Source: an uncultured Fimbriimonadales bacterium (GTDB taxonomy: Bacteria > Armatimonadota > Fimbriimonadia > Fimbriimonadales > GBS-DC). Taken from it: 33,082 nucleotides of DNA. Positions 3,143-27,102 of this stretch are shown here, one piece after another. The notes beneath the pieces were generated by a model. It was not told where the DNA came from. It worked only from the letters and a program-made list of their open reading frames with translations, and made no database searches. The stretch's first letter is position 1, and each line of letters starts with the position of its first letter. The position numbers were made by a program, and so were the translations under genes. The stretch lies in the NCBI GenBank assembly GCA_964595265.1, contig CAZQPV010000004.1, positions 6,576-39,657 of the forward strand. The letters are read 5' to 3'.

Positions 3143-5437
3143 GTGCCCTGGCGATGGTGGATAACAGCAGGTTTTTTGTGGCTCGGATGCCATATGGGCT
3201 TTGCCCAGACGGCTGAGCCACAGGTGAGCTTTGCGCCGGGATGGTACACCTTCCCCGAGATTGCCCAGGCGTTTTCTGTGGAGGGGCGCAGAGTGGAGTG
3301 CGCGGCGAGCTTGCGCCAGCAAGTAGCGCTGGTTCACCTCAAGCCGCGCCCGTGGAGTCAGGCAAGAAAACTCATCTGCTCTGGTCTGGATGTACGCTTC
3401 CGCCCTGTGAGAAAAAACCACTGGGTGATGGAGCGTCTCCCTGAGGTGACGCAACGCGAGGCGCGCTGGCGTGAGCAGTTCAAAAAGCACCTCCTGCAGT
3501 CTGCCCAGAAAGAGATTGAGTTTCAAACCCGTTATGAAGGTGGGCGGGCGCTGGTGCGCAATCTCACGCCCGAACAGCGGCAAGAGCTGGTCGCCGTATA
3601 CTGGCGCTACGAAGATTGGCAGGAACAAAATAGAAAACAGAAACCGCGTGTGAGCCTCGAAAAAGCGCCTGCCAGCATCTTCGAAGTCGGCGAAGGGTTG
3701 TGGCGTTATGCCCAGTCGTGTTATCCGATCCTTGCTGATAGGATTAGGCGATGGTTTGGTATCAGTGCCAGTGATAATCCGACGCTCCAAACGCGTGCTG
3801 CGCTCATCCTGCTGGGAGGCTATGCGGTGTCTCTAGAAAGGCGTCAGGTATGGGAAGCCATGCCTCCAGAGTTATTGCTGGAGATGTGGCAGGTGAACAG
3901 GCGCCTCCATGAGTGGCTAAAGCAGTGGTGGCAAGAGAACGAGGCAGCCTACGAAGACGACCCCGAAGCAGCGTGGAAAGCCTCGCTGGAGGCGATGCCG
4001 CTGGGGCGCGATTCCTTCAGTGAGGCGCTCTGGCGCGCTCTGGAGCCGCACCTCCTAGCCGTAACAGAAGACCTACGACGGCAAAACGATCCAGCGAGCG
4101 AGCTGAATCCAGAGATGCAAATGAAATGCGCGCTCGTTTATCTGAATCTGAGGTTCCATACCGAAAAAGATTACCGTTTTCGGGACTTCTACTATCACTT
4201 GCTGGCAGACAAACGGTTGCTGGATGCTCTGCTGAACGAGGCTTTCGAGAATGGCAAAGTCGTACAAACGATTCCACCGAATGCTCTGGTGGAAGACCCG
4301 AGGCTGGTTCCCTTGCTGATGAGCGAGGTGGGCGACGTGTCAGAGGAGGTCCGCACAGAGGGTTGGGTATGCGTTTACAGCACGAAGTGGTCGCTGTTGC
4401 AACTGGCGTTCTCGGTCATGTGTGTTCCCGTGCATGCCTCAGGGCGCAAGGCGAGTTACAAATGGATATTTTTCTACGACATGTTTAACAAGGACGATCC
4501 AGAGACGGACGGGACTGAGACAGTCCTTGAAGCGCTGAGCAAGGATGCGCAGACGCTTTACCAGCAGCGGCGGGCGCAAACGCAAAGCGTACTGGAGTCG
4601 CCTCTGGGCAAGCAGAAAGTTAAGCTGAACCTGTCTATGCGTTTCCCCAGCCGGCTCCATCTGTTCATGAGCTGGGCACAGGCAACGCAAGCAGAGGTGA
4701 TTATGGAGCTGACGCCTGTTCGGTGGACGGAGCCGATGTTTTTGAACACGCCTGCTCCAGCCACCGCCTCGCTTCAGGAACTATATCAGATACTCCCCGA
4801 AGATGATTTTCCTGTGCCCCTGCACACCACTATCCAGATGCGTCAGGAGCAGGGCGTCCTGATTGTCTCCAACATGCTGGCGTTTCTGGATCGCGCCATC
4901 GATTACCCCGCGGCGTCGCTGTTGCGCTTGCACAGAAACAGTGCCGTTCCCAATGAGAATCTACCGTGCAGTGCGTGGATTGAGTTCTGCCGCGAGGTTT
5001 CCCCGTTGCAGGCGCGCTGGTTAGACGCCATCGGCTGGCTCTGGTTCGAAGACTCGCTGGCTTATGCGCGCTTGTCCGACTTTTACCGCCTGTATCACGG
5101 CGTGCTGGCAGGACGTGAACATCTCCTCAAAACAGGCGGCGTCATACGCTTTGACACATGGACGCCGCCTGCCTTGCAACGGACGATTGCGCTCTGGCAG
5201 TCCGTTACCCCGTCAGTTGATGAAGGGGATGCGCTTCTGTTCCACCCTGCCTTTCCCGAATGGCTGCGCCAGCACCCGATGGTGCTGGAGCCTATCCAGT
5301 TCACCCACGATAAAGCGACAAACGAGTTTCGCTGGAAGCTCAAGTGCCGATTCGCTGACTTTGATAGCAATCTGGGCGTTAGTGGCTCATTCTGCTACCC
5401 CGCCTCGCCCGAACCCGAAACCGAGGAAAAACTGTGA
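3143..5437 (+). CDS. Large secreted protein of unknown function (paralogue of 27103-29103)
   Basis: The GTG start follows GGCGGAGGAA with a 6-nt spacer. It has an N-terminal signal peptide (MPWRWWITAGFLWLGCHMGFAQT) and a 764-aa uninterrupted ORF. I recognise no catalytic motif. The N-terminal ~150 aa aligns by eye with the 27103 protein, including a shared LTPEQRQEL / MTPEQREKRL motif. Confidence 0.65.
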   Translation: MPWRWWITAGFLWLGCHMGFAQTAEPQVSFAPGWYTFPEIAQAFSVEGRRVECAASLRQQVALVHLKPRPWSQARKLICSGLDVRFRPVRKNHWVMERLPEVTQREARWREQFKKHLLQSAQKEIEFQTRYEGGRALVRNLTPEQRQELVAVYWRYEDWQEQNRKQKPRVSLEKAPASIFEVGEGLWRYAQSCYPILADRIRRWFGISASDNPTLQTRAALILLGGYAVSLERRQVWEAMPPELLLEMWQVNRRLHEWLKQWWQENEAAYEDDPEAAWKASLEAMPLGRDSFSEALWRALEPHLLAVTEDLRRQNDPASELNPEMQMKCALVYLNLRFHTEKDYRFRDFYYHLLADKRLLDALLNEAFENGKVVQTIPPNALVEDPRLVPLLMSEVGDVSEEVRTEGWVCVYSTKWSLLQLAFSVMCVPVHASGRKASYKWIFFYDMFNKDDPETDGTETVLEALSKDAQTLYQQRRAQTQSVLESPLGKQKVKLNLSMRFPSRLHLFMSWAQATQAEVIMELTPVRWTEPMFLNTPAPATASLQELYQILPEDDFPVPLHTTIQMRQEQGVLIVSNMLAFLDRAIDYPAASLLRLHRNSAVPNENLPCSAWIEFCREVSPLQARWLDAIGWLWFEDSLAYARLSDFYRLYHGVLAGREHLLKTGGVIRFDTWTPPALQRTIALWQSVTPSVDEGDALLFHPAFPEWLRQHPMVLEPIQFTHDKATNEFRWKLKCRFADFDSNLGVSGSFCYPASPEPETEEKL

Positions 5438-5457: not shown

Positions 5458-6576
5458 TCACCCAATCTCCCGAATCTGGGTGGGTGGCTCGGCGTTCAGC
5501 GAAACCGCGCCCTCTTCCGTAAGGGTATACACATTCTCGATTCGCACGCCGAACCGCCCTGGCAGGTAGATGCCTGGCTCAATTGTGAAGCAGTGCCCTA
5601 CTTCCAGCGGACTGGTGTTGCCTTCCACGAGGTAGGGCGGCTCGTGGACGGATAGCCCGATTCCGTGTCCTGTGCGGTGGACGAAGTAGTCGCCGTAGCC
5701 TGCTTCGGTGATAACGGCGCGGGCGGCGCGGTCGACTTCCTGCGCGGGCACGCCGGGCTTGGCAGCCTCGCGGGCGCGCATGTGGGCGTCGTAGACTATC
5801 GTGTAGAGTTTTTTCGCCTCCTCTGGTGCGGCGCCCACGCTCACCACGCGCGTGATGTCGTTGCAGTAGCCTTCGTACACCCCGCCGAAGTCAATCACAA
5901 TCACATCGCCCTGCTGGAGCAGGCGGTGTCCTGTGGTGTAGTGGGGTTTGGAGCTGTTCTCGCCTGAAGCGACAATCGGGATGCCGAAAGCGAGCTTGGA
6001 GCCTGCGTCGTACAGGGCGCGCTGGATGGCGAGCGCTACCGACCATTCGGTGTAGCCCTCGGCGCACAGCTCCAGCCCTGACGCCAGCGTCTCGTCGGTC
6101 AGGCGCGCCGCCTCGCGCATCAGGGCAATCTCGGTCGCGTCTTTCTGGGCGCGGGCGTGTGCCATCAGCTCGCCCCCACGCCGGAACAGTGCAGTGGGCA
6201 GAAACTCCTGCAGAATCAGCACAAACATCGCGGGCATCTCGTCGTCCACCGCTATCACGCCCGTCTCCAGCTGGGGATAGTCCTGAATCAGGCGCTGGAG
6301 TGCGCTGACGGGTCCTTCCGAGTCGTGCCACACATAGCGTACCGTCCAGCCCGCGGGGTTCGTTTCGGCGCTCTCTGCGCTCAGCGCGGGCACGAACCAC
6401 ACGGGGTCGCCCTCGCGCGGCGCCAGCAGGAACATCAGGCGCTCCAGCGGCGGCTCCGAAAACCCGCTCAGGTAAAACATGTTCACGGGCGTGCTGGCAA
6501 GAAAGGCGTCCACCCCTTCCGCCAGCATGCCCTCCTGCACTTTCGCCAACCGCTTGCGAAACAGCTCGTGTGCCAT
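5458..6576 (-). CDS. M24-family Xaa-Pro aminopeptidase/dipeptidase
   Basis: Pita-bread fold metal ligands are all present: DFGGVYEGYCNDITR (D, D), HRTGHGIGLSVHEPP (H), TIEPGIY (E), RIENV (E). I prefer the ATG at 6576 because GAGGTG lies 7 nt upstream; the GTG at 6585 is the alternative. Confidence 0.9.
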   Translation of the reverse strand: MAHELFRKRLAKVQEGMLAEGVDAFLASTPVNMFYLSGFSEPPLERLMFLLAPREGDPVWFVPALSAESAETNPAGWTVRYVWHDSEGPVSALQRLIQDYPQLETGVIAVDDEMPAMFVLILQEFLPTALFRRGGELMAHARAQKDATEIALMREAARLTDETLASGLELCAEGYTEWSVALAIQRALYDAGSKLAFGIPIVASGENSSKPHYTTGHRLLQQGDVIVIDFGGVYEGYCNDITRVVSVGAAPEEAKKLYTIVYDAHMRAREAAKPGVPAQEVDRAARAVITEAGYGDYFVHRTGHGIGLSVHEPPYLVEGNTSPLEVGHCFTIEPGIYLPGRFGVRIENVYTLTEEGAVSLNAEPPTQIREIG

Positions 6577-6588
6577 CCTTAACACCTC

Positions 6589-7254
6589 TCAGATTCGGAT
6601 CATCAGCCAATCGCTCAGCAGGTAGTAGATGCGTCCTATCAGCAGCGCCATACGCGCCATCACCGTGTTGCCGAATATCGCGCCCAGCCCTATCATCAGG
6701 AACCAGCGTCCCGCTGTCGCGATATGTTTCACCACGCCTTTCTGGGGATACGAGAAAGTGAAGTAGACCAGCACGGAAGCCAGAATGAGAACGAAAATCC
6801 AGTTTGTGAGAACGCCGAACAGGCTCACATCGGGGTTCGCGCTGGACATCCAGAGCGGGCGGGACAGCGTGCTGTTGAGCTGAACCACATAGCGCGAGGC
6901 GAACTCCTGGAAAAAGAGTCCTGCCGAAGTGCCCACCAGCGCGCCAATCACCAGACGGCTGACCCAGCCATAGCGCTCGCTATAGATGAAGTAGAGGTAC
7001 ATCCCAAAGGGCACGAGGAACGCCCACGCCCACTGACCCTGGACCCAGATAGGCGTAATCCAGTAGCGATAGAGGATATCCACGCCCAGCGGTCCCAGCG
7101 AGTAGCCCGCCGCCAGCCCGATATACATATGCTCGAAGAAGCGATAGATGGGGTTCTCGCGATACAGCAGTGAGTAAATCGCAAGGGTGCAGAGAACCCC
7201 AATCCACACATTGACTCGCTCTACGCTCAGTGGTAAGAATTGTTGCAGATCCAT
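6589..7254 (-). CDS. Polytopic membrane protein, unknown family (operon gene 6)
   Basis: 221 aa with about six hydrophobic helices. The SD AGGAGGG lies 8 nt upstream of the ATG. It starts 4 nt after the upstream gene and ends 3-12 nt before the peptidase start. Confidence 0.7.
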   Translation of the reverse strand: MDLQQFLPLSVERVNVWIGVLCTLAIYSLLYRENPIYRFFEHMYIGLAAGYSLGPLGVDILYRYWITPIWVQGQWAWAFLVPFGMYLYFIYSERYGWVSRLVIGALVGTSAGLFFQEFASRYVVQLNSTLSRPLWMSSANPDVSLFGVLTNWIFVLILASVLVYFTFSYPQKGVVKHIATAGRWFLMIGLGAIFGNTVMARMALLIGRIYYLLSDWLMIRI

Positions 7255-7258
7255 GGCA

Positions 7259-8098
7259 TCAGCCCTCCTGCCTTGATTGGAGACGGTTCATAAACAGCGC
7301 TAAGTTGCCCAGAAAAATGAACAGAATAATCAGCACATGCGAGAACGAGATGGCGTTCACGAAGCGCGTGCCCAGTCCGACGATACCGAGCAACTGCTCG
7401 TATTCCTGAGCGCCTTTGGCTCCTGTGAGCATGCCTTTGATTTGTCCTGAGTCAAGGAAGGTATAAGCTTCTGCCGCCATCACCGAGGTGGGACAGTAGA
7501 GGATACGGGTCTCCTTGGGGGCATAGGAAATCCAGAAAGGCATTGTGGCTGAAGGGGTTACATCGATAATCATCTTATACTGGCGTAGCGAGGTAATGCC
7601 CTTCAGCAGGGGCAGTTCGCTCACAGGGTTCCCGCGCACATCTTTTTTGATGGTATCGGGCAGGTTATTGACCATGCCCTTAATCGCCACAATCAGGTTG
7701 GTTACAAACCCGAAATGCGCCCAGTCGCGCCCATATTCGTAGCCTCCTTCTGGCGTGAGACGCAATGCCAGTCGGTACGAAATGTCGCGCGACTGAGCTT
7801 CCACCGAGATGAGGGTAAACTTGACCTTCTTACGCATCAGATGGCGAATGACCGCCTCCAGCTGGGGTTGATTCTCGGCAATGGTGCTGGCGCTCCAGTT
7901 GGAGGAAATCATCACAAGGTCGCCCGGCTGGAGCTTCTCGATCTCATCATAAAACTTCTGCACTGGCGGCGAAACGGCAGCACGCATCCGGATGGGCACC
8001 AGCAAAAACAGCACGATATTCGCAAACAAGAGCAGGTAGAGAAGGCGCCTGTCGATGCTCAGCATGCGCTCCCAGATGCTCGGTCCTTGTGTCTGCAT
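7259..8098 (-). CDS. Bitopic membrane protein with ~200-aa central soluble domain, unknown family (operon gene 5)
   Basis: 279 aa. N-terminal TM is LLYLLLFANIVLFLLVPI and C-terminal TM is FSHVLIILFIFLGNLALFM. The SD AAGGAGGAA lies 6 nt upstream of the ATG. Confidence 0.7.
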   Translation of the reverse strand: MQTQGPSIWERMLSIDRRLLYLLLFANIVLFLLVPIRMRAAVSPPVQKFYDEIEKLQPGDLVMISSNWSASTIAENQPQLEAVIRHLMRKKVKFTLISVEAQSRDISYRLALRLTPEGGYEYGRDWAHFGFVTNLIVAIKGMVNNLPDTIKKDVRGNPVSELPLLKGITSLRQYKMIIDVTPSATMPFWISYAPKETRILYCPTSVMAAEAYTFLDSGQIKGMLTGAKGAQEYEQLLGIVGLGTRFVNAISFSHVLIILFIFLGNLALFMNRLQSRQEG

Positions 8099-8111
8099 CG
8101 TTGGTTCCTCC

Positions 8112-8888
8112 TTATGTAACGCCGCGCTCCAGGCTCAGCCACAGGCGGATTGCCATCGCCAGCCCGCCAATCCCGACGCCGAACTCTATTGCACGCTGAA
8201 CAGGAGCGTTCAGCGAGTTCAGAATCCAGTTCGCTACGCTCGGCAGGTACGGGCTGAGCTGCGCGCCAAGCGGCACCACGCCAATCATCACCACAATCGC
8301 GGTGAACATCAGAATCCCCGCCTCTACCGAGCGGATGCGAAAGGCACGGTAGGCGGCGGAAAAGATGTAAAAGGCAATCAGGGAAAACATCGCCGCGTCT
8401 AACTGCACCAGCGTGTAGTCAAATAGCAGCTTGAAGCCCTGCTCCAGCAAGGGGGTTTTCTCCACCAGCCCCTGCTCCGAGAGCGTGTTGGCGATGCTGA
8501 AAGTCGCCATCACGGCAAACGAAATCAGCAACACCAGGCTGTATCCCCACTGAGTGCGCCGTTGAACTACATTCCTCAAGTGGAGCCGTATTAAGCCATA
8601 GGTTCCCAGCGCCAGCGCCAGTGCTGTAACGACCTGTAGAGCCTGTTGGGCAGGCTGGATGGCTTCAGTCAAAAAGTTCTTTTGTTCTTCATCAACGGGG
8701 AAGAAAAATTCGGTAGCAAAGAAGAGACCTGCAAGAAAGGTAATCGTTACGATAATCGCACGCCGACCGCGGGGAGGTAGGGCATGCAACAAGGGCACTA
8801 GCCCCATCATCATGATGAAAGCGCCCAGCACAATCATCCAGAGGATTAGCTGTCCTGTTGGCGAGTTCGGGTTCTGTATTTGCCACAT
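8112..8888 (-). CDS. Polytopic membrane protein, unknown family (operon gene 4)
   Basis: 258 aa with about seven hydrophobic helices. The start overlaps the upstream stop (TAATG), and the SD GGAGGGGG lies just upstream. Confidence 0.7.
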   Translation of the reverse strand: MWQIQNPNSPTGQLILWMIVLGAFIMMMGLVPLLHALPPRGRRAIIVTITFLAGLFFATEFFFPVDEEQKNFLTEAIQPAQQALQVVTALALALGTYGLIRLHLRNVVQRRTQWGYSLVLLISFAVMATFSIANTLSEQGLVEKTPLLEQGFKLLFDYTLVQLDAAMFSLIAFYIFSAAYRAFRIRSVEAGILMFTAIVVMIGVVPLGAQLSPYLPSVANWILNSLNAPVQRAIEFGVGIGGLAMAIRLWLSLERGVT

Positions 8889-9730
8889 TATTGACCCCCT
8901 CCGAAAAAGGCGTCCCAGCCGCCTGGTTGCCCCAGCAGTTTGACGATGGGCGCATCAGCGCCGAAAATAGAGGTGAGAACGGCGCCTGTGATGGCAATTA
9001 ACACGAACAGCAGTTTGGCGATATCCTGTCCTACGAGGCTTCCCAGCAGCACGGGCTCGCGGCTGAGGTAGGCGCTGGTCGCGTAAAACTCATCCCCGAT
9101 AATCGTGTAGTCGCATGCCGCAACAAAGAAGGGTACCTGCGTGAAACTAACGGTACCTGCAACCTGAATGGCGCCCACGATATTACCTGTTTCGGCAAAG
9201 ATGAGCGATTCGGCGTAGAATTCGCCAAACATAAAGTTTGCCGCGACGCGCTCGCGCTGAATCAGCCCTGCCACGCCAGAGGCAAAGGCGAACTGACGGT
9301 CGGACAGGAACCGAATCGCGTCGGGGTCGTACAGGTCGGGTCGTCCTGCCTCGTTGTAGGCGTCCTGAATCGCTTCCTGCGCGACAGCGTACACCGTGGC
9401 GTCGCCTGTCAGAAGGCGCATCGGCGTTGCAAAGTGGGCAATCTGTTTAGTGATGTATTTGAAAATGGTGAGCGCCTGCACTGCCACGACGCCGAAGGCG
9501 GTCATGCCGGGGATCATCGTGACGGGGCGCCCCATCTCGGTGGAGCGCCCAATCGCCTCGTCGATGGCGTCCAGCCCAGGAATGCGCCGAATGTAGAGCG
9601 ACGCCCCTGAACGGGCGATAGCGATACTCACCAGCACGGCGGTGGCAATCACCGCAATCAAGATTGCAGCGAACCAGTTGTCCGCCGCATGCTGATATTG
9701 TGCCAGTCCACTAAGCCACAGAGTTTCCAT
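8888..9730 (-). CDS. Membrane-anchored protein, unknown family (operon gene 3)
   Basis: 280 aa. N-terminal TM is WFAAILIAVIATAVLVSIAIA and C-terminal TM is IAKLLFVLIAITGAVLTSIF, with a soluble core between them. SD AAGGAGAA. Confidence 0.7.
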   Translation of the reverse strand: METLWLSGLAQYQHAADNWFAAILIAVIATAVLVSIAIARSGASLYIRRIPGLDAIDEAIGRSTEMGRPVTMIPGMTAFGVVAVQALTIFKYITKQIAHFATPMRLLTGDATVYAVAQEAIQDAYNEAGRPDLYDPDAIRFLSDRQFAFASGVAGLIQRERVAANFMFGEFYAESLIFAETGNIVGAIQVAGTVSFTQVPFFVAACDYTIIGDEFYATSAYLSREPVLLGSLVGQDIAKLLFVLIAITGAVLTSIFGADAPIVKLLGQPGGWDAFFGGGQ

Positions 9731-9736
9731 AGGCGG

Positions 9737-10060
9737 CTATTCTCCTTGCGTTGTGGGGCGGCGTCGAGCGCGGCGCTGTTCTTCTTCCAGCTCTTCGATG
9801 CGCTCGATGAGCCGATCCCAGTTTTCACGCTCGCTCATCAGTTGAGAATACTGGTCAATTTTATCGAAACCGAAGAAGGGCGCCAGAAAGGGGGCAAATG
9901 CCACCGTTGCCTGCGAGCTGAGAAACGCCAGCGGTCGGTGCAGGGTGATCATGAAGACTGCTGGCGCTGCCAGCCCGCGCTTGACCACCTGCTGTGCCAG
10001 CGCGTCAATCAGCTGCGCTTTCTGCTCCTCACTCAAGGGTTCCTTCCAGAATTCACGCAT
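9737..10060 (-). CDS. Small protein with hydrophobic hairpin and charged C-terminal helix (operon gene 2)
   Basis: 107 aa. The start overlaps the upstream gene by 8 nt (ATGCGTGA). SD GAGGTGAG lies 5 nt upstream. The C-terminus is ERIEELEEEQRRARRR. Confidence 0.6.
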   Translation of the reverse strand: MREFWKEPLSEEQKAQLIDALAQQVVKRGLAAPAVFMITLHRPLAFLSSQATVAFAPFLAPFFGFDKIDQYSQLMSERENWDRLIERIEELEEEQRRARRRPTTQGE

Positions 10061-10526
10061 AACGGCTCACCTCGCTATGCTTGCGCTTCTTTCGGGCGGA
10101 CTTGCTCTGGCTCTCCGCCGCGCCGCAATAGGTGCGCACCAGCTGTTCTACCTGCTCACGATGGTCGCCATACCATAAAAAGATACCCCGATAGGCGTCC
10201 AGGCGGCTGGGGCGCGTGAGCGGGCTAAGCAACACGCCATGCTCGCCCCACACAACGCGCTTGACCTGCTCCCAGCGCAGCACGCGCGGCGCCAGACCAC
10301 GCTGGCGAACCTCCTGCGCATCGGCTTCGTAACGCATCGGTAGCAGGTAGTCCGACGTCGCCGAGAAGAGCATCCAGAACGCCGCCAGCCCAAACAGCCA
10401 GTGCCCCATCAGCAGCCCGCCCAGCAGCGGCGCCCCAAAGAGAACCAGCACCACCACGGGCAGGCGCTCCGGCATCTGCCGCGCCAGATGAACCGTCCAG
10501 CGATACGCCAATTGCTCGTCCGTCAT
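10053..10526 (-). CDS. Two-TM protein with C-terminal soluble domain (possibly bacterial PH-like) and basic tail (operon gene 1)
   Basis: 157 aa. A TM hairpin (LPVVVLVLFGAPLLGGLLMGHWLFGLAAFWMLF) is followed by a ~70-aa soluble domain and a KKRKH tail. The SD is weak, so the start is less certain. Confidence 0.55.
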   Translation of the reverse strand: MTDEQLAYRWTVHLARQMPERLPVVVLVLFGAPLLGGLLMGHWLFGLAAFWMLFSATSDYLLPMRYEADAQEVRQRGLAPRVLRWEQVKRVVWGEHGVLLSPLTRPSRLDAYRGIFLWYGDHREQVEQLVRTYCGAAESQSKSARKKRKHSEVSRYA

Positions 10527-10596
10527 GCGTTGCGCCTGTAGATTCGTGCCTGCCCCCTATATTCCTGCTACTTTCTCGCAAAACCGCCCCATGAGG

Positions 10597-10602
10597 TACA
10601 AT
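10597..10602 (+). promoter_or_regulatory. -10 element (GGTACAAT) for the mqn gene
   Basis: gaGGTACAATtcg lies 27 nt upstream of the ATG at 10629, with SD GGAGG at 10612-10616 in between. It is in the divergent intergenic region. Confidence 0.45.
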
Positions 10603-10628
10603 TCGCGCTACGGAGGACTATCCCAACG

Positions 10629-12520: not shown

Positions 12521-13867
12521 TTAGAGAATTTTGTCCAGCACCATGTCCATGTTGACGGTGATGCGGTTGATGGTGGTGCGTGGCGCTCCACTCTGTGCGC
12601 CGCCGGCTCCGCCGGGCATACCGGGCGCGCCGCCGGGCAGTCCCAGCCCGCCGCCGCGCGGTCCGCGTGCGCCGCGTCCGCCAATCATGCCACCCTCATC
12701 TTCCTCACCGCCAGCAAAGCCGCCGCGTCCGCCCATCGGGGGCGCGCCGCCTCCCATAAAGCCGCCGCTTGCCCCCTGCTGCTCGCGCTGGGTCGTTTCA
12801 ATCTCAATCGTGGTACGCTGACGCACAATCTGCCCAATATCGTAGGCGAAGTAGGTCTCCCGTCGGAACTTGACTTTGGCTTTTTCGAGTTTGACGCCAC
12901 CCAGATCCAGCTCGCCTGGCAGATTGCCCGTGAACTCATAGACAATCTTGGCGCATTTGTAGCCGCGCTCCCACTCGAATCGCTCCAGTCGCGCTGCCGC
13001 GGGAATCTGTCCTTCCGCCACTTTCGAAATATCGCCAGAACGCAGCGGGTTGCCCAGTGTGATGACTCCCGTCCAGCGATCGCCCGGCTTGAGCGGCTTG
13101 GGCGGAATGACGGCGAGGTCGCCCACCCAGTAGTAATAGATGCCATACTGGAGTTGCTCTCCCAGCCGTGCGTTCTGATACAGCACACGCCCTGTCGGCT
13201 CCACCTCTTGATAAACGGGCGCGAAGTTGTTGACTGTCAGCACCTCGTACTGCCCTGGCGATCCCTGAATCGCAGGTGGGTTCACAATCCACGAAATCAA
13301 GCCCAATCCGTTGCGCCAGTCCAGCACATTCAGGTCGCCTTTGAAGCGCACTTCGATAAGGATGTTTTCTTCGGGTGTCAGCCCAGAATACTGGATTTCG
13401 GTGCTTTCCTTGGCGACATAAAAGAGATTGTAGCGCACAGTTTTTCCGGGGGGCAGCCAGCGATACTGCAATCGGATTCCGCCTGCTGGCGGCTTTATTT
13501 CGTTCTCCACAATTACCCGCACGGCGCTGCGCGCCAGCACACGCGGATTGCCCCCCTCGGTACCGGAATAGAGTGTCAGCTCAATCGTGTGCTGTCCGTC
13601 GGGCACATTGCGCGCTTTGGTATCCCACTCATAGATATAGTGCCCCTTCTCACGATCGGAGCGCAGCACCGCGGGCGCTACCGCCTCGACAAACTTACCA
13701 TCGATACTGACCCCAATAAAGCCGCCCTGCGGCACGCTGCGGATGGGGAAGCGCACCTGTACCGTTTCCCGCACGCGCGCACCGTCCAGCGGGCGCACAA
13801 TTGTGAACGGTGCCTGCGCCCACGCCACACCGAAGATGAGCCATAACCCGATTATCAAGCGGTTCAT
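12521..13867 (-). CDS. Secreted protein of unknown function with Ig-like N-domain and 70-aa Gly-rich C-terminal insert
   Basis: I chose the ATG at 13867 because GGAGGAGAAG lies upstream and it yields the signal peptide MNRLIIGLWLIFGVAWAQA/P; the ORF-track start at 14053 adds 62 aa with no signal or SD. The Gly-rich segment (GGFMGGGAPPMGGRGGFAGG...GGAGGAQSG) maps to 12578-12787. The stop lies 3 nt upstream of the tatC start. Confidence 0.7.
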   Translation of the reverse strand: MNRLIIGLWLIFGVAWAQAPFTIVRPLDGARVRETVQVRFPIRSVPQGGFIGVSIDGKFVEAVAPAVLRSDREKGHYIYEWDTKARNVPDGQHTIELTLYSGTEGGNPRVLARSAVRVIVENEIKPPAGGIRLQYRWLPPGKTVRYNLFYVAKESTEIQYSGLTPEENILIEVRFKGDLNVLDWRNGLGLISWIVNPPAIQGSPGQYEVLTVNNFAPVYQEVEPTGRVLYQNARLGEQLQYGIYYYWVGDLAVIPPKPLKPGDRWTGVITLGNPLRSGDISKVAEGQIPAAARLERFEWERGYKCAKIVYEFTGNLPGELDLGGVKLEKAKVKFRRETYFAYDIGQIVRQRTTIEIETTQREQQGASGGFMGGGAPPMGGRGGFAGGEEDEGGMIGGRGARGPRGGGLGLPGGAPGMPGGAGGAQSGAPRTTINRITVNMDMVLDKIL

Positions 13868-13891
13868 CTGTTCTTCTCCTCCACAACAGGG

Positions 13892-13897
13892 ATTGTA
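13892..13897 (-). promoter_or_regulatory. -10 element (GGGTACAAT on minus strand) for the 13867 gene
   Basis: The minus strand reads gataGGGTACAATccctgttgtGGAGGAGaagaacagATG. Confidence 0.45.
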
Positions 13898-13958
13898 CCC
13901 TATCTGACTCCTCAGTTCGCCCAATGGCTCGGATTTCCTGCCACCTGGCAAGGTGGTG

Positions 13959-13964
13959 TATAAT
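13959..13964 (+). promoter_or_regulatory. -10 element (TATAAT) placed 6 nt before the amylase ATG (leaderless arrangement)
   Basis: In gtgTATAATacctgtATG the hexamer ends at 13964 and the ATG starts at 13971. No SD precedes either candidate start. Confidence 0.45.
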
Positions 13965-13970
13965 ACCTGT

Positions 13971-16900
13971 ATGCGACGCATCAGCACGCTTTTTATGCTG
14001 ACCTGGGCTCTGATTGCCACCGCCACCGCGCAGCTTACATGGGTGGGCAACACACGCCTCTACATGACAGGCTATGGACAACTTCCCTCCCGATTGGGCA
14101 TGATGGAACCATGGCAGACCCTCACCATCACGACCCAGACCGCCCCGATTGCCCCCGGACAGCGCGTGGTTGCCGTCGTAACAACAGATGACTGGCGCAC
14201 TACGCGAGAATACGATTTCTCATTTGACTTCAACACAGGAAGCAGTACCCAGTGGTACTGCGTGCTGGGACCGTTCCTGGCAGGCACTTATGTTCAGTTC
14301 TACATTCGGGCGCATGGCGGCAACGGCGAAGTGTTGTACGACAATAACGCCAGCAGCAACTACAGCGTGTGGGTGCGTCATGCACCGCCCCTGAAAGAGA
14401 CGCCCATCCTGCAGTGGTTCCAGACCGACTATCGCACGATTATGCAGCGGCTCCCTGAAGTGGTGATGGCGGGCTATGGCGCCCTCTATCTGCCCTCGCC
14501 CGTGAAATCAGGCGGAGGAGGCTTCAGCACAGGCTATAACCCATTTGACCCCTTTGACCTGGGCGACCGCCTGCAGAAGGGAACCGTGCGCACGCAGTAC
14601 GGCTCCACACAGGAGCTGATGGAGCTGATCCAGCTGGCGCACCGTTTCGGGATTGAGGTGTATTGCGATCTGGTAACGAATCACGCCGATAATCGCGCCA
14701 GCACGCCCATTGACCGCTACCCTGCCTTTATTCCCGAGGACTTTCACATTCGCTCCACGGCTGACCCCACCAATAATGAAGTGGATTTCAACAATGTGCC
14801 GCCTTTTGGGTTCGGCACGCTCAACTACGATGTGGTGGGGCTGGCAGACTATGCGCATGAGGACGGCAACAACACCCGCACGGGCGCGTTTAATTTGCCC
14901 AGCTATGCCCAGTTCAACGCCTACGGCAAGCCCTCCTTCGTGCGCCACCCGAATAACCCGCATTACTACTCCAACGGTACGCCCGTATCAGAAGACATCC
15001 GCCAGCTGCTCAAGCGCTGGGCGTGGTTTTTGACCACCGTAATCGGTTTTGACGGCTATCGCATCGACGCAGTGCGCCACACACCGCCGGGCTTTTTCGG
15101 GCGCACACCCCAGCAACCGGGCGGCATCGTCAGCGAGGGCGACCTGATTCCCTACCTCTACTCTCTGAACCCGAACCTCACGATTTTCGGCGAGGTCTAC
15201 TCCAGCAACAGCTGGGAACTGCGTGAATACGCCAAGACGGGGATGAATCTGATCGATTTCCCGATGAAATTCATGGCGAACAACCTTTTCAACTCAAACG
15301 GCTATGGCGATCTGGGGGCGAGTCTCAGCAACGGCTTTGGCACCGACCCCAGCACGGGATTGCCCTACGAGCTGGGCGGGCTGGCGAGCTATCTGGGGAT
15401 TGGCTTCGTGCAGAGCCATGACGATGGACCGCCGCGTTCCAACAATCTGGCGCATGCGTGGTTGCTAACGCGCCCCGGACGCCCCAAAATCTATTACGAC
15501 GGCAACAACATTGACCCCAACGATTGGAGCCACTTCCCCAAGCCGGGGCGCTATAACGCGCTGGGCAACGGCGACGAGACGCTCCTGAAACTGCTGGATG
15601 TGCGCAAGCGGTTCGCGCGGGGGCGGCTGGTCAACCGCTGGGTGAGCCAAAACCTCTATATCTACGAGCGTCAGGTGAACGGCTACAGCGTGCTGCTGGT
15701 GGGGCTGAACAATCGCGGCGATTTGACCCCCCTCACGGCGACGGTTCAGACCGCCTTCGCGCCCGGTACGGTGCTGTACGACTATTCAGGTCAGCGCCCG
15801 CCTGTTACGGTGGACTCAAACGGCAGAGTCACGATTACGGTTCCGCCCAACTCTACGCCGACGAACGACAACAACGCCTACGGCTATGTGCTGTACGCGC
15901 CGCGCACGCCAAACCCCCTGTCCGAGGTGCCGCCTATCCAGTTTCTCGATTCGCATGGCAACCCCATCCCGTTTGAAACCGTTCCGACTCCGGGCGGCGT
16001 GTATGCCAGCGGGCGCAGCTTTCAGGCAGTAACGCTCACCACACCGCTCGTGTCGCTCCGTGTGCGCACCGATGTGTTCGGCGCCAGCGCGTACTTCAAG
16101 ATTGACAACGGTGTTGCCCTGCCCGGCTTGACCCCCCTGCAAAGCACCCCCGAAGGGCTGAAGGACGGCTTCATCCCCATGGCGCGTATCGCCGACGGGC
16201 ACTTTGAGCAACACGGACTGGACTTGAGCAGGCTGCCCGCAGGGCTGCATGTCGTGCGGGTGCGGGTGTTTATGAACACGCCTGCAGGACGCCCTGAACT
16301 GTTCAACGAGTTTTTCGCCTTCTTCTATCTCAAGCCACGCGAGGGGGCGATTGTGGTAGACGGTGACCTGAGCGACTTGGGGACGCCGATTGCCACTCAG
16401 ACCCGAACGCCCAGCTCCAGTCTGAACCGACTGGACGCGCTCTATGTGCGCAACGATCACCGTAATCTCTATATCGGGATTGCGGGGCGCGTGGACACGA
16501 CGGAGAATCAGACTTACGGCGTCGCGCTGTTTCTGGATGTGGATTACGGGCGCGGCACGGGGCTACGCGCTCTGGAGCCGCTGGCTGACGACAGCGGTCC
16601 TGCCCCGCGCCTGATTTCGAACCAGCGCCTTACCGCGCCCGAGGGGTTCGGAGCCGATTTCGCCGTCGGCGTGTTCCGCCATCGGGGATTGCACAGCGCG
16701 CCCGAAGCGCCCTTCACGGGCGACGCACGACTGCCTTATGCGGTCGGCGCGGAAGCGGGCGCGTATCGCTTGGACCCCACACGCCTCAACTGGCTGGAGG
16801 GAATCCCCGCGCAGATTACATGGCGTCCCCGCTTGAACGCCACAGACCTGCCCACAGGCCTGGAGATTGCCATCCCGCTGGACGCGCTCTACGCGAACCA

Positions 16901-17453
16901 GAAGGCGAGCAATCCGCTGGCGCTTTTCGCGGTGCTGCTGAACACAGGCGAGCTGGGCACGGTGTTTTCGGCATATGACTCGCGCCGCGCGACTCTGGGA
17001 CCCCGACCGCCCGCCACCAGCTGGCTCAGCAACCAGTTCCTGCCGCCCCAGCCCCATATCGTGAACAATCCGGGCGCGGTGGCGGTTAGCCTGCAGAGTG
17101 TGGCGACTTATACCCTTCAGCGTATGCCTTTGCTGACAACCCCCTACCGCATTCGCTGGGGCGTGATGCGCCGCGATCCTGGCACGGGCGAATATCGCGT
17201 GCGCGGGCGCGTGGTGAACACGGGCATGGATGTGTCGGGACCTGTGGCGATACTGTTCCGCCTACCCAGCGGCGTGGAACTGGTCAACCGCACGGGGATG
17301 AGCCTGTTTGAAATGGGCGTACCTTATTTGATTCTCACAGAGGGGATATGGCGCTCTGGCGAGGTACTGGAGTTTGAGCTGCGTTTCCGTGCCCCGAACC
17401 CCCGCTTCTTCCCACCCAAGGTGGAGCTGCGTGCGGGGGTAGGGGCGCTGTGA
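13971..17453 (+). CDS. Secreted multidomain GH13 alpha-amylase-family glycoside hydrolase
   Basis: All four GH13 conserved regions are present: DLVTNHAD, GYRIDAVRH, IFGEVYS, FVQSHDD. The signal peptide is MRRISTLFMLTWALIATATA/Q. The N-terminal ~130 aa has a starch-binding-module-like pattern (DDWRTT...YDNNASSNYSV). About 600 aa of further C-terminal beta-rich domains follow. GTG at 13953 is the alternative start. Confidence 0.85.
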   Translation: MRRISTLFMLTWALIATATAQLTWVGNTRLYMTGYGQLPSRLGMMEPWQTLTITTQTAPIAPGQRVVAVVTTDDWRTTREYDFSFDFNTGSSTQWYCVLGPFLAGTYVQFYIRAHGGNGEVLYDNNASSNYSVWVRHAPPLKETPILQWFQTDYRTIMQRLPEVVMAGYGALYLPSPVKSGGGGFSTGYNPFDPFDLGDRLQKGTVRTQYGSTQELMELIQLAHRFGIEVYCDLVTNHADNRASTPIDRYPAFIPEDFHIRSTADPTNNEVDFNNVPPFGFGTLNYDVVGLADYAHEDGNNTRTGAFNLPSYAQFNAYGKPSFVRHPNNPHYYSNGTPVSEDIRQLLKRWAWFLTTVIGFDGYRIDAVRHTPPGFFGRTPQQPGGIVSEGDLIPYLYSLNPNLTIFGEVYSSNSWELREYAKTGMNLIDFPMKFMANNLFNSNGYGDLGASLSNGFGTDPSTGLPYELGGLASYLGIGFVQSHDDGPPRSNNLAHAWLLTRPGRPKIYYDGNNIDPNDWSHFPKPGRYNALGNGDETLLKLLDVRKRFARGRLVNRWVSQNLYIYERQVNGYSVLLVGLNNRGDLTPLTATVQTAFAPGTVLYDYSGQRPPVTVDSNGRVTITVPPNSTPTNDNNAYGYVLYAPRTPNPLSEVPPIQFLDSHGNPIPFETVPTPGGVYASGRSFQAVTLTTPLVSLRVRTDVFGASAYFKIDNGVALPGLTPLQSTPEGLKDGFIPMARIADGHFEQHGLDLSRLPAGLHVVRVRVFMNTPAGRPELFNEFFAFFYLKPREGAIVVDGDLSDLGTPIATQTRTPSSSLNRLDALYVRNDHRNLYIGIAGRVDTTENQTYGVALFLDVDYGRGTGLRALEPLADDSGPAPRLISNQRLTAPEGFGADFAVGVFRHRGLHSAPEAPFTGDARLPYAVGAEAGAYRLDPTRLNWLEGIPAQITWRPRLNATDLPTGLEIAIPLDALYANQKASNPLALFAVLLNTGELGTVFSAYDSRRATLGPRPPATSWLSNQFLPPQPHIVNNPGAVAVSLQSVATYTLQRMPLLTTPYRIRWGVMRRDPGTGEYRVRGRVVNTGMDVSGPVAILFRLPSGVELVNRTGMSLFEMGVPYLILTEGIWRSGEVLEFELRFRAPNPRFFPPKVELRAGVGAL

Positions 17454-17912: not shown

Positions 17913-19001
17913 GTGCGAGGCATCATTATCGCGGGAGGCTTAGGTACACGCCTACGACCACTCACCCTGCGCCGTCCCAAGCCGCTGTTGCCTGTGGCGA
18001 ACCGCCCGTTTCTGGAGTATCAGGTGGCGCAGCTGCGGGCGGCAGGCGTGGAAGAGATTGTGTTCGCCACCAACTATCTGGCAGACCGCATCGAGTCGCA
18101 CTTCGGGGACGGCAGCCGCTTCGGGGTGCGCATGCGCTACGCGCAGGAAAAAGAGCCGCTGGGCACGGCGGGCGCCATCCATAACGCCGTGCAAGGCTTA
18201 CCCCCGATGCGCGCGATTGTGTTCAACGGCGATATCCTGACCGATTTTGACATCGGTGCGCTGGTGCGGTTACATCAGGATCGGGGCGCGGAGGTCTCGC
18301 TGACGCTCTATCGCGTGCGACGCCCCCACCCTTATGGGGTGATTCAGGTGGCGGACGACGGGCGCGTGCTGGCGTTTTTGGAGCCGAGCGAGGAGCAGAA
18401 GCGCGCTGCCGACCGCGGCGAGCCGATGGAAGGCGACGACTTCATCAACGCCGGCATCTACATCATGGAGCCAGAGATCATCCAGCGCATCCCGCTGCGT
18501 CCCTGCTCGATTGAGCGCGAGTTCTACCCGCAGATTCTGGCGGAGGGCGCGCGCGTGTACGGCGCGGAGGGACGCGGATTCTGGCTGGATATTGGACGCC
18601 CTGCGCAGTATCAGCGCGCCACACGCGCCCTGCTCAGCGGCGAGGTCAAAGCGGCGCTCCCGCCCGGCGGCGTGTGTACCTCAAACGGCTACTTCATCGA
18701 TGGCGACGCCGATATTGCGCCCGAAGCGGAAATCGAACCCGGCTCGCTGATCGGCAACGGCGCGATTATCGAACCCCACGCGCGTATCAGCGGGTATACT
18801 GTAATTGGCGCAAACAGCGTCATCGGCGCGGGCAGTGCCTTGCACGGATGCATCCTCGGACAGGGCGTGCAGGTCGGCGATGGTTGCTGCCTCACCGACT
18901 GTATCGTGGATGACGGCACGACCATCGAATCGCATGTGCGCCTGCGCGGCGCCATCCTGGGCGCGAACTCGATAATCCGTGCCTACAGCGCCGCCGAGTA
19001 A
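17913..19001 (+). CDS. NDP-sugar pyrophosphorylase (sugar-1-phosphate nucleotidyltransferase) with C-terminal left-handed beta-helix, GMPP-like
   Basis: The N-terminus MRGIIIAGGLGTRLRPLTLRRPKPLLPV carries the GXGTRLXPLT signature. The C-terminal third has hexapeptide repeats (IGNGAIIEPHARISGYTVIGANSVIGAGS...). GTG start with SD GGAGG. Confidence 0.85.
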   Translation: MRGIIIAGGLGTRLRPLTLRRPKPLLPVANRPFLEYQVAQLRAAGVEEIVFATNYLADRIESHFGDGSRFGVRMRYAQEKEPLGTAGAIHNAVQGLPPMRAIVFNGDILTDFDIGALVRLHQDRGAEVSLTLYRVRRPHPYGVIQVADDGRVLAFLEPSEEQKRAADRGEPMEGDDFINAGIYIMEPEIIQRIPLRPCSIEREFYPQILAEGARVYGAEGRGFWLDIGRPAQYQRATRALLSGEVKAALPPGGVCTSNGYFIDGDADIAPEAEIEPGSLIGNGAIIEPHARISGYTVIGANSVIGAGSALHGCILGQGVQVGDGCCLTDCIVDDGTTIESHVRLRGAILGANSIIRAYSAAE

Positions 19002-19027
19002 ACCCTAACAAGGAGGACCGAAACACT

Positions 19028-20146
19028 TTGCAAGTCAGGATGGCAGATTTAGGCAGCCAGTACCGCAAGATTCGGCACGAGGTGGAGCCAGAGCTCCTCA
19101 AAGTGCTGGAAAGCGGGCGTTATATTCTGGGCGAAAATGTGGAGCAACTGGAAGCGGAGATAGCCCAGCTGTGTCGGATGCCCTACGCAATAGGCGTCAA
19201 CTCTGGCACGGACGCGCTCAAACTGGCACTGCGTGCGCTCAACATCCAGCCGGGCGATGAGGTCATCACCACGCCGTTCACCTTCGTCTCCACAGTGGAA
19301 GTGGTGGTGCTTCTGGGCGCGGTTCCCGTGTTCGTGGATATTGACCCCGAAACTTACAACCTGGACCCCGATCAGGTGGAAGCCGCCATTACGCCGCGCA
19401 CCCGTGCGATTATGCCGGTGGATTTGTACGGGCAATCGGCGGAGATGCGCGCCCTGCGCGAGATTGCGGACCGTCACGGGCTGTACCTGATTGAAGACGC
19501 GGCGCAGGCGATTGGCGCTCGCCACTATGAAGAGCCGATTGGCGCCTACGCCGACATCGCCACGCTCAGCTTCTTCCCCACCAAGAACATCGGCGGCGCC
19601 GGCGACGGTGGGATGGTGTTGACCCACTACGAAGAGCTCGCCCGCAAAATACGCAGCCTGCGCGTGCACGGCATGAACGGCGGCTATTACTATGAAGACA
19701 TCGGCTACACCAGTCGATTAGACGAGATTCAAGCCGTGATTCTGCGCGCCAAACTGCGCCACCTTGAGGAATGGACCCAGCGGCGGCGCTATCATGCCAC
19801 GCTTTACCGCACGCTCCTCGCAGAAATGGAGCCTTGCCTGCCTGTCGTGCGCCCCTATAACTATCATGTGTATCACCAGTTCACCCTGCGCCATCCCCGG
19901 CGCGACGCGCTTCGGGAACACCTGAAAGCACGCGGCCTCGAGAGCGCCGTCTACTACCCCCTCCCGCTCCACCTGCAGCCCGCCTATCGCTTCCTGGGTT
20001 ATCGCGAAGGCGACTTCCCGCATGCAGAACGCGCCGCGCAGGAGGTGCTGTCCATCCCTGTCCACTCGGAACTGGGCGAAGACCAGATTACAACAGTCGC
20101 CGAAAGCATTCTTGAGTTTGCGCGTTCGGAGGTCTCGGTGCGATGA
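19028..20146 (+). CDS. DegT/DnrJ/EryC1/StrS-family PLP-dependent sugar aminotransferase
   Basis: DLGSQYRKIRHEVEPELLKVLESGRYILGENVEQLE is the family N-terminus. LSFFPTKNIGGAGDGG contains the PLP lysine. TTG at 19028 lies 10 nt after GGAGGA; the ATG at 19040 is the alternative start. Confidence 0.85.
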   Translation: MQVRMADLGSQYRKIRHEVEPELLKVLESGRYILGENVEQLEAEIAQLCRMPYAIGVNSGTDALKLALRALNIQPGDEVITTPFTFVSTVEVVVLLGAVPVFVDIDPETYNLDPDQVEAAITPRTRAIMPVDLYGQSAEMRALREIADRHGLYLIEDAAQAIGARHYEEPIGAYADIATLSFFPTKNIGGAGDGGMVLTHYEELARKIRSLRVHGMNGGYYYEDIGYTSRLDEIQAVILRAKLRHLEEWTQRRRYHATLYRTLLAEMEPCLPVVRPYNYHVYHQFTLRHPRRDALREHLKARGLESAVYYPLPLHLQPAYRFLGYREGDFPHAERAAQEVLSIPVHSELGEDQITTVAESILEFARSEVSVR

Positions 20147-21189: not shown

Positions 21190-21228
21190 CAGGATTTTCA
21201 GCGCCCTTCGCGAAAAACGAGATAAGCT

Positions 21229-24341: not shown

Positions 24342-24359
24342 GTCGTGGCGCCCTCAGGG

Positions 24360-24365
24360 TATAAT
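24360..24365 (+). promoter_or_regulatory. -10 element (GGGTATAAT) for the second rhodanese gene
   Basis: caGGGTATAATttacccctgctaaatatcGGAGGTGgaATG, with the start at 24393. Confidence 0.5.
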
Positions 24366-24392
24366 TTACCCCTGCTAAATATCGGAGGTGGA

Positions 24393-27067: not shown

Positions 27068-27102
27068 ACATCACAACAGGAATTTTGCAGGAGGTCCCTA
27101 GA

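Follow-up and report, generated by a model that had tools for sequence, protein, structure and literature searches.

DUF6754 (Pfam PF20539) is known only as a sequence definition with no function attached to it, and a literature search found no paper mentioning it; nothing relevant was found on DUF5656 or PF13941/GlmL either. One member of this family is encoded by g3, the third of seven consecutive minus-strand genes in a 33,082-nt stretch of DNA from an uncultured Fimbriimonadales bacterium. We refer to the whole stretch as the window, give all coordinates of window genes with respect to it, and label the seven genes g1 to g7 in the order of their transcription. Comparison across genomes shows that g3, g4, g5, and g6 are a four-gene core conserved and inherited as a unit across about 13 phyla, and that g1 and g2 are an accessory pair bridging this core and an ATPase module, which elsewhere encodes an actin-fold ATPase and a 375-aa partner protein. 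Only two family memberships stand, that of g3 in DUF6754 and that of the terminal peptidase g7 in M24; the core genes g4, g5, and g6 belong to no family at all. No characterised complex corresponds to the system in sequence profile or, for g3 and g5, in fold, and the system is widespread. Our tentative reading, held with a little less than even confidence, is that g1–g6 encode the subunits of one undescribed heteromeric machine of the cytoplasmic membrane, translocation mechanism included, and that g7 is unrelated to it.

Among described systems, the Rnf and Na+-NQR complexes bear a superficial likeness to this one. The g4 and g6 proteins would correspond to the two six-helix subunits of about 200 aa (cf. 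RnfA/E), the putatively periplasmic, membrane-anchored domain of g5 to RnfG, and the N-terminal sandwich-barrel hybrid motif of the 375-aa protein to that of RnfC/NqrA. Alignment with the Escherichia coli Rsx subunits by hhalign gave probabilities of 0.04% for g4–RsxA, 0.2% for g6–RsxE, and 0.8% for g5–RsxG, and the relationship was rejected. The 375-aa protein aligned with RsxC through the small barrel motif alone, with an hhalign probability of 12.7%. No Rnf-Nqr (PF02508) match was found in g4, g6, and 57 orthologues, no FMN_bind match in g5 and 30 orthologues, and no RnfG/NqrC-type structure among the listed Foldseek matches of g5. Different from Rnf/Nqr, g4 and g6 have no conserved cysteines, and there are no Fe-S or flavin subunits. 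ATP-binding cassette (ABC) and energy-coupling factor (ECF) transporters were likewise rejected: g1–g6 have no ABC_tran, BPD_transp, ABC2, or ECF match, and the sole ATPase associated with the block elsewhere has an actin fold.

The PilM–PilN–PilO and GspL–GspM assemblies share with the present system an actin-fold cytoplasmic protein accompanied by small proteins spanning the inner membrane. PilO and GspM have a ferredoxin-like fold. A relationship was rejected, as there is no PilN/PilO or GspL/GspM Pfam match and the soluble domains of g3 and g5 are Rossmann-like, not ferredoxin-like. The present system differs further in adding two polytopic proteins and two proteins in which a Rossmann-like domain lies between transmembrane (TM) helices. 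Pilus or secretion ATPase, secretin, and pilin genes were absent from the neighbours examined. The PADLOC defence models matched none of g1–g6, the ATPase, and its partner, and profile searches of g3–g6, the ATPase, and the partner against PDB sequences gave nothing significant. The original prediction, made without database searches, had recognised no family motif in the six membrane proteins that would place them in a known system; the profile searches and, for g3 and g5, the fold searches bear this out.

Conservation and models of the g3–g6 core

One genome per GTDB species was scanned with g3, which gave at least 574 confirmed relatives. Eighty loci were kept, and the 76 of them with a complete g3 open reading frame (ORF), from about 13 phyla, are the basis of the family counts. 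The window proteins were compared with the loci by tblastn, and the ORFs within 9 kb were clustered all-against-all. In the clustering, g3 and g4 are each present in 75 of the 76 loci, g5 in 74, and g6 in 72; both methods find the order and adjacency g3–g4–g5–g6 in nearly all loci. The closest relatives of g3, with 80–86% identity, come from metagenome-assembled genomes (MAGs) of Fimbriimonadales and other Armatimonadota. The loci belong to Armatimonadota including Chthonomonadaceae, Eisenbacteria, Fermentibacteria/Aegiribacteria, Cloacimonadota, Zixibacteria, WOR-3, Stahlbacteria, Ignavibacteria, Planctomycetota, Bacillota (Symbiobacterium and Fermentithermobacillaceae), Vulcanimicrobiota, and a deltaproteobacterium; separate homologue listings add family members from Latescibacteria and Oligoflexia. 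Two further members, P0075 and P0359, come from MAGs labelled archaeal (Thermofilaceae and Methanocomedens, respectively), which could reflect binning contamination or transfer to archaea. Synteny of g3–g6 is thus conserved across phyla, and these genes are not scattered in related genomes. The original prediction had taken g1–g6 as one six-gene block. Its six genes are coordinated, but the block is not indivisible and consists of two modules, g1–g2 (module A) and g3–g6 (module B). Between phyla, mean column identity falls from 63% in the ATPase and 59% in its 375-aa partner to 47% in g3, 38% in g5 and in g6, 36% in g2, 28% in g4, and 26% in g1.

The first gene of the core, g3 (8888–9730, minus strand, 280 aa), encodes its most conserved subunit. 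It matches DUF6754 with E = 6e-92 and 307.9 bits against a cut-off of 27, over positions 9–248 of the 257 in the model. All six products upstream of the peptidase had been called unassignable; this no longer applies to g3 but stands for g1, g2, g4, g5, and g6, which have no significant match in Pfam, NCBIfam, or PADLOC. At 90% identity, the DUF6754 family falls into at least 8000 clusters. The homologues listed carry a precomputed PF20539 assignment, and the only names among the matches listed are "hypothetical", "DUF6754 domain-containing", and "fibronectin type III domain-containing". Across 29 sequences from many phyla, 31 columns of g3 are invariant, many of them polar or charged, including R62, E65, R159, E174-S175, E180, Q189, Q198, C206-D207-Y208, E214, D236, and K239. 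The AlphaFold2 (AF2) model of g3, with a predicted local distance difference test (pLDDT) score of 72, is composed of a TM helix, a six-stranded Rossmann-like α/β domain, and a long C-terminal TM helix. Foldseek against the PDB returned no specific neighbour for it, only generic Rossmann-type structures with a best E of 0.045. Residues ~160–225 are the most conserved yet least confident part of the model (pLDDT 54–65), and this low confidence would fit a surface that is completed by partner subunits.

In other phyla, g3 starts with a cleavable signal peptide followed by an extra domain, identified as fibronectin type III in one source; the alternative start is a lipoprotein signal followed by a domain of ~260 aa. 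Because these signals precede the TM helix in the homologues, the N-terminus of g3 is predicted to be extracytoplasmic and its DUF6754 domain cytoplasmic. The locus L087 (7139–10004) comes from a more distant relative, whose g3 is 54% identical to that of the window and has a lipoprotein-type N-terminal extension of ~260 aa.

The g5 gene (7259–8098, minus strand, 279 aa) encodes a protein whose AF2 model is of higher confidence (pLDDT 94.6, predicted TM-score 0.88). An N-terminal membrane helix is followed by a six-stranded Rossmann-like α/β domain and a long C-terminal helix. Both g3 and g5 had been described as bitopic; the membrane-anchored soluble domain is retained in the models, but each domain has a membrane helix at both ends instead of one. 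Foldseek matches of g5 in the PDB are again of generic Rossmann type, with query-normalised TM-scores of at most 0.37, and include halves of GT-B glycosyltransferases, GTPase domains of the signal recognition particle system, and dehydrogenases. No Pfam family was found in 30 g5 orthologues. An exhaustive HMMER search nevertheless places 5225 representatives at 50% identity in the g5 family (E <=1e-3), or 4067 at E <=1e-10. In one organism, g5 and g6 are naturally fused into a protein of 591 aa (P0450), and the linker between them contains one additional membrane helix; this implies that the g5 C-terminus and the g6 N-terminus lie on opposite faces of the membrane. Another protein, P0451 (630 aa), has two g5 domains in tandem. 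An invariant DRR precedes the first helix of g5 and an Arg/Lys-rich tail follows the last one; by the positive-inside rule, the domain between them would be periplasmic. The g3 and g5 models have the same order of secondary-structure elements, and hhalign detected no significant homology between the two proteins. Both soluble domains have conserved residues close to the ends of strands and in the loop that follows the first one.

These features of g3 and g5 bring in a first alternative, a membrane-anchored enzyme complex in which g3 catalyses a reaction on an envelope lipid or polymer or in cofactor handling, g4–g6 hold or present the substrate, and the ATPase acts as a chaperone or reactivase. 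The 31 invariant columns, whose polar and charged members are clustered in the g3 sequence, favour this reading, the g3 identity of ~50% between phyla is typical of an enzyme, and conserved residues of both Rossmann-like domains lie at the usual ligand site of this fold. On the other hand, neither fold nor profile searches gave a match to an enzyme family, the best Foldseek hit of g3 being far from specific, and g3 and g5 have no invariant histidine or DxHxxG-type B12 motif. Weighing these points together with those from the ATPase below, we regard the enzyme complex as rather unlikely.

The remaining core genes, g4 (8112–8888, minus strand, 258 aa) and g6 (6589–7254, minus strand, 221 aa), encode polytopic membrane proteins; the g4 start overlaps the g3 stop in the sequence TAATG, and g6 is the last gene of the core. 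In most phyla, g4 is a protein of ~207 aa to which the Armatimonadota sequences add one N-terminal helix. The earlier count of about seven TM segments for g4 is therefore recast as this shorter polytopic form plus the extra helix. The g4 signature is MFSLLAFFIASAAYRAFRAR...LGIER, and that of g6 is YFxFSxEHxG...FGAxFGYTVMARxSLLIGR, or more loosely YFxFSxEHxG...FGAxFGxTVMxRxxLLxxR. Both proteins have conserved intramembrane Arg and Glu residues. No Pfam family was found in 30 orthologues of g4 or 27 of g6, and hhalign detected no homology between the two. A DUF5656 assignment of g4 was dropped, since a single match below the cut-off among the 30 orthologues was treated as chance. In L087, an Ala-, Gln-, and Arg-rich insertion of ~100 residues interrupts the central region of g4.

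The accessory pair and the ATPase module

Module A begins with g1 (10053–10526, minus strand, 157 aa), the first gene of the block, which overlaps g2 (9737–10060, minus strand, 107 aa) by 8 nt. The g1 protein has a hydrophobic N-terminal stretch, which we read as a membrane hairpin, a small β-rich domain, and a terminal helix. The g2 protein has an amphipathic helix, a hydrophobic hairpin marked by prolines, and a charged C-terminal helix, and its invariant residues are P33, P43, P57, and E89. Searches with hidden Markov models (HMMs) found orthologues of g1 in 30 and of g2 in 34 of the 76 loci; 18 g1 orthologues were scanned and showed no consistent Pfam family. Outside Armatimonadota, g1 and g2 almost always occur in loci with the ATPase, most commonly in the order g1–g2–ATPase–375-aa protein, and g2 is usually directly upstream of the ATPase gene. 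In many of these loci, g1–g2 lie ~4 kb upstream of g3, with the genes for the ATPase and the 375-aa protein in the gap.

The ATPase is a protein of ~615 aa that matches PF13941 ("MutL/GlmL") with E = 1e-123 to 1e-126. It shares with GlmL/MutL, which accompany the B12-dependent glutamate and ornithine mutases, this family match and the nucleotide motifs of the acetate and sugar kinase/Hsc70/actin (ASKHA) superfamily; specifically, we read phosphate-1, phosphate-2, and adenosine motifs in its sequence. It differs from GlmL/MutL in having a C-terminal extension of ~130 aa, in being linked to membrane proteins, and in scoring below the GlmL and Or-4 cut-offs, with 219–223 bits against 475 for NF040745 and 159–160 bits against 204 for TIGR01319. 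As the scores fall well below the NCBIfam GlmL cut-offs, we take it to be a subfamily distinct from GlmL. GlmL-family proteins are thought to act as chaperones or reactivases for B12-dependent mutases. That the only named relatives of the ATPase are GlmL and the ornithine-degradation protein Or-4 favours the enzyme complex discussed above. Its score far under the GlmL equivalog cut-off speaks against that explanation, as does the lack of mutase genes among the recurrent or examined neighbours of the core loci.

The 375-aa partner is conserved and soluble, and it has neither a family nor a relative in the PDB. In the PDB profile search, its N-terminal part gave only weak sandwich-barrel-motif matches to RNA polymerase β′ and NusG. 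The idea that it is a lipoyl carrier was dropped, as no lysine is among the invariant or near-invariant positions of the N-terminal barrel region. In L087, a 392-aa gene upstream of g1 was considered as a candidate partner and rejected, being an unrelated secreted protein. In the Latescibacteria locus L085, the partner gene (7477–8598) is the next gene upstream of g3, 0.5 kb away, and no ATPase is found in the 9 kb upstream on the contig. Hence the two cytoplasmic proteins are not always linked to each other.

The position of the ATPase module relative to the core varies by phylum: it lies upstream, downstream, or a few kilobases off with genes between. We argue that the linkage, being kept despite this variable order, indicates a functional tie between the module and the core. 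Of 35 loci flanked by 8 kb or more of sequence on each side, 17, from other phyla than Armatimonadota, have the ATPase and/or the partner, six have only g1 and g2 beside the core, and 12 have the core only; the six are all from Armatimonadota. The window itself is of this kind and does not qualify as a GlmL/MutL-associated system, since no PF13941 ATPase stands with its membrane genes.

Where the ATPase does occur, it raises the alternative of a scaffold, morphogenetic, or signalling assembly, in which an actin-fold ATPase tethered by g1, g2, g3, and g5 organises an envelope process in the manner of PilMNO, GspLM, or FtsA. The column identity of the ATPase is in the range generally expected of cytoskeletal and chaperone ASKHA proteins, and it has a weak Pfam match to an MreB-like C-terminal domain. 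Extramembrane domains on both faces, together with the periplasmic N-terminal domain of g3, would suit such an assembly, and g1 of L065 has faint matches (E ~0.01) to the morphology proteins SepX/GlpR and SCO2097. These g1 matches are, however, far under the cut-off, and no subunit has a Pfam match to FtsA or, as said above, to the Pil and Gsp components. Moreover, polytopic subunits with conserved Arg and Glu inside the membrane, of which there are two here, are atypical of alignment complexes, and many genomes have the core without an ATPase nearby. We consider the scaffold quite unlikely.

The loci that have the core alone, and the Armatimonadota in which g1 and g2 stand without the ATPase, favour another alternative, in which g3–g6 are an ATP-independent secondary transporter, an analogue of the tripartite ATP-independent periplasmic (TRAP) and tripartite tricarboxylate (TTT) transporters with g5 as a tethered binding domain. 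The genes g1, g2, ATPase, and 375-aa protein would then be a separate, co-regulated enzyme system, for which ATP-dependent hydantoinase/oxoprolinase-like chemistry is one possibility. The putatively periplasm-facing α/β domain of g5 and weak matches of the GlmL family to hydantoinase A domains agree with this. A true TRAP or TTT system was rejected: there is no DctQ/DctM or TctA/TctB Pfam match, and the g5 model has a single α/β domain. The same facts count against an analogue, as g5 is single-lobed instead of two-lobed and no solute-binding protein is among its listed Foldseek matches. The membrane proteins g1 and g2 also speak against it: in Armatimonadota they accompany the core and elsewhere the ATPase, bridging the two modules. 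The secondary transporter is, in our judgement, distinctly improbable.

The peptidase, the operon, and other genes of the window

The last gene of the block, g7 (5458–6576, minus strand), encodes an M24B Xaa-Pro peptidase. Translation from the ATG at 6576 yields 372 aa, whereas the GTG at 6585 would give 375 aa. The ATG is probably the start, because the GTG lies inside the Shine–Dalgarno (SD) sequence, the orthologues have 369–372 aa, and an independent gene call, on one of the Logan contigs mentioned below, starts 12 nt after g6. The protein matches PF00557 Peptidase_M24 with E = 2e-65 (220.7 bits) and Creatinase_N with E = 8e-14. The motifs of the five metal ligands (D, D, H, E, E), namely DFGG, NDITR, GHGIG, IEPG, and IENV, are present in the translation, so that its description as a canonical M24 peptidase is confirmed. 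With these domains and motifs, it is an ordinary member of the family that includes the M24B peptidases PepQ and PepP; its score against the PepQ equivalog NF040821 is 200 bits against a cut-off of 630, which limits the assignment to family level.

The link to peptide import or processing that the peptidase had suggested finds little backing in the comparison. On this view, the membrane proteins g1–g6 take up or process peptides, with g7 at the cytoplasmic end of the pathway. In its favour, g7 lies 3–12 nt downstream of g6 with its own SD site and no terminator between them, and enzymes of amino-acid metabolism recur near the core elsewhere. Specifically, 12 loci have glycine-cleavage genes, 10 have a class-III aminotransferase gene immediately before g3, and in L052 a lipoate-protein ligase (12927–13751) comes directly after g6. 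TonB-dependent receptors recur in nine loci. These neighbours are weak hints of amino-acid or peptide metabolism, and we give them little weight because each recurrent one is confined to one to three lineages. The peptidase itself follows g6 only in seven close Fimbriimonadales loci among L001–L010 and nowhere else, not even in the more remote Armatimonadota loci L012–L016, and is thus no constant companion of the block. None of the proteins is similar to any peptide transporter family. The peptide pathway is therefore very unlikely, and we are highly confident that g7 is not part of the conserved complex; in our reading, an unrelated peptidase joined the operon in Fimbriimonadales, where it is apparently co-transcribed with g1–g6. 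For annotation, this means that the M24 peptidase should not name its neighbouring genes. As for the glycine-cleavage genes, in Fermentibacteria/Eisenbacteria-type loci they immediately precede g1 on its own strand (gcvT, gcvH, gcvPA, and gcvPB at 636–8761 of L086; gcvPA and gcvPB at 2836–5669 of L065).

The layout of the seven minus-strand genes is as first described with respect to coordinates, junctions, and SD sites, as judged from the ORF list and the reverse-strand sequence. From g1 to g7, the junctions are -8, +6, -1 (the TAATG mentioned above), +13, +4, and +3 nt, the last becoming +12 if g7 starts at its ATG. The SD strings upstream of each internal start were confirmed in the reverse-strand sequence. 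Three independent public Logan contigs carry identical genes, with gene calls that give the same six product lengths, and orthologues of each product are found in dozens of genomes. On these two grounds the ORFs are real genes, in agreement with the earlier view that they are not shadow ORFs. A divergent intergenic region of 102 nt (10527–10628, listed on the minus strand) separates g1 from a plus-strand radical-SAM gene of CofH/MqnC type, beyond which lies TatC. This region presumably holds the operon promoter and the 5′ untranslated region. A promoter scan found no minus-strand sigma-70-like site in it or inside the g1–g7 block. Within the block, there are only two weak minus-strand terminator-like matches, and the total for the region is below shuffle expectation. 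Rfam had no matches in the window and seven related loci, and no riboswitch or other RNA clue was found there.

Other genes of the window were noted as follows. A 764-aa ORF (3143–5437, plus strand) is convergent with g7; it has no Pfam family, and its hydrophobic N-terminus may be a signal peptide. Three ORFs of 510 aa (12521–14053, minus strand), 672 aa (27085–29103, plus strand), and 671 aa (30809–32824, minus strand) have no Pfam match at E <=1e-4. The first of them follows TatC immediately, on the same strand, and its start overlaps by ~100 nt a 1166-aa ORF (13953–17453, plus strand) with only faint matches to α-amylase domains; one of the two starts is probably miscalled. A nucleotide-sugar cluster at 17913–23198 (plus strand) is composed of two tandem genes combining NTP_transferase and left-handed β-helix domains, a DegT/DnrJ/EryC1 aminotransferase, and two GFO/IDH/MocA oxidoreductases. 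A GT4 glycosyltransferase is encoded at 803–1975. Two proteins with two rhodanese-domain matches each are encoded 21 kb apart on the plus strand (1982–2911 and 24345–25286), the second directly after a lone ABC-type permease gene (BPD_transp_1, 23448–24341).

Proposed assembly and its meaning

That the proteins form one physical complex, as the original prediction had suggested from coupling and topology, is very probable on the genomic evidence: the synteny of the core across phyla and the natural g5–g6 fusion support it indirectly, and the lack of a match to any characterised system fits a complex of no recognised family. In the assembly that we propose, g4 and g6 would form the membrane-embedded body. 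The Rossmann-like domain of g3 would lie in the cytoplasm, with its N-terminus facing outward and bearing an extracytoplasmic domain in other phyla, and the different Rossmann-like domain of g5 would lie in the periplasm. Such an arrangement would place matched domains on both faces of the membrane. The ATPase and its partner, where present, might dock on the cytoplasmic domain of g3 together with g1 and g2, and the complex might move a substrate across the cytoplasmic membrane or hand it over. In the present genome, the ATPase and partner may be encoded elsewhere, or the core may work without them. That the activity is transport, translocation, or hand-over is possible, and we hold it with well under even confidence.

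Several observations weigh against this assembly. For residues ~160–225 of g3, an active site seems a likelier role than a docking surface, and the sidedness of g5 is predicted solely from the positive-inside rule. A tblastn search of the 33-kb window detected neither the ATPase nor the 375-aa partner, and within 10 kb both are also missing from the Armatimonadota loci L001–L016; with the 12 fully flanked loci that have the core alone, this implies that the core may not need ATP. Neither in profile nor in fold does any subunit resemble a transporter, channel, or secretion component of known type, and "transport" is accordingly drawn from anatomy alone. We know of no transporter driven by an actin-fold ATPase, and the membrane-associated ASKHA proteins PilM, FtsA, MreB, and GspL are scaffolds.

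The larger proposal is that the core with g1, g2, the ATPase, and the partner represents a new class of inner-membrane machine, the first ASKHA-coupled translocator or envelope device, present in thousands of mostly uncultured species of more than 12 phyla and in no model organisms. We regard it as possible, and as likelier false than true. If the proteins do form a single machine, it would be a widespread and wholly uncharacterised membrane system of bacteria, ranging over Armatimonadota, Planctomycetota, many candidate phyla of the Fibrobacteres–Chlorobi–Bacteroidetes (FCB) group, and some Bacillota. Three of its four core subunits, g4, g5, and g6, do not have even a DUF number. The cytoplasmic parts are conserved like housekeeping proteins, which suggests a basic cellular role in these poorly cultured lineages. 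The outcome is a concrete, testable gene set, with culturable carriers among Armatimonadota, planctomycetes, and Symbiobacterium.

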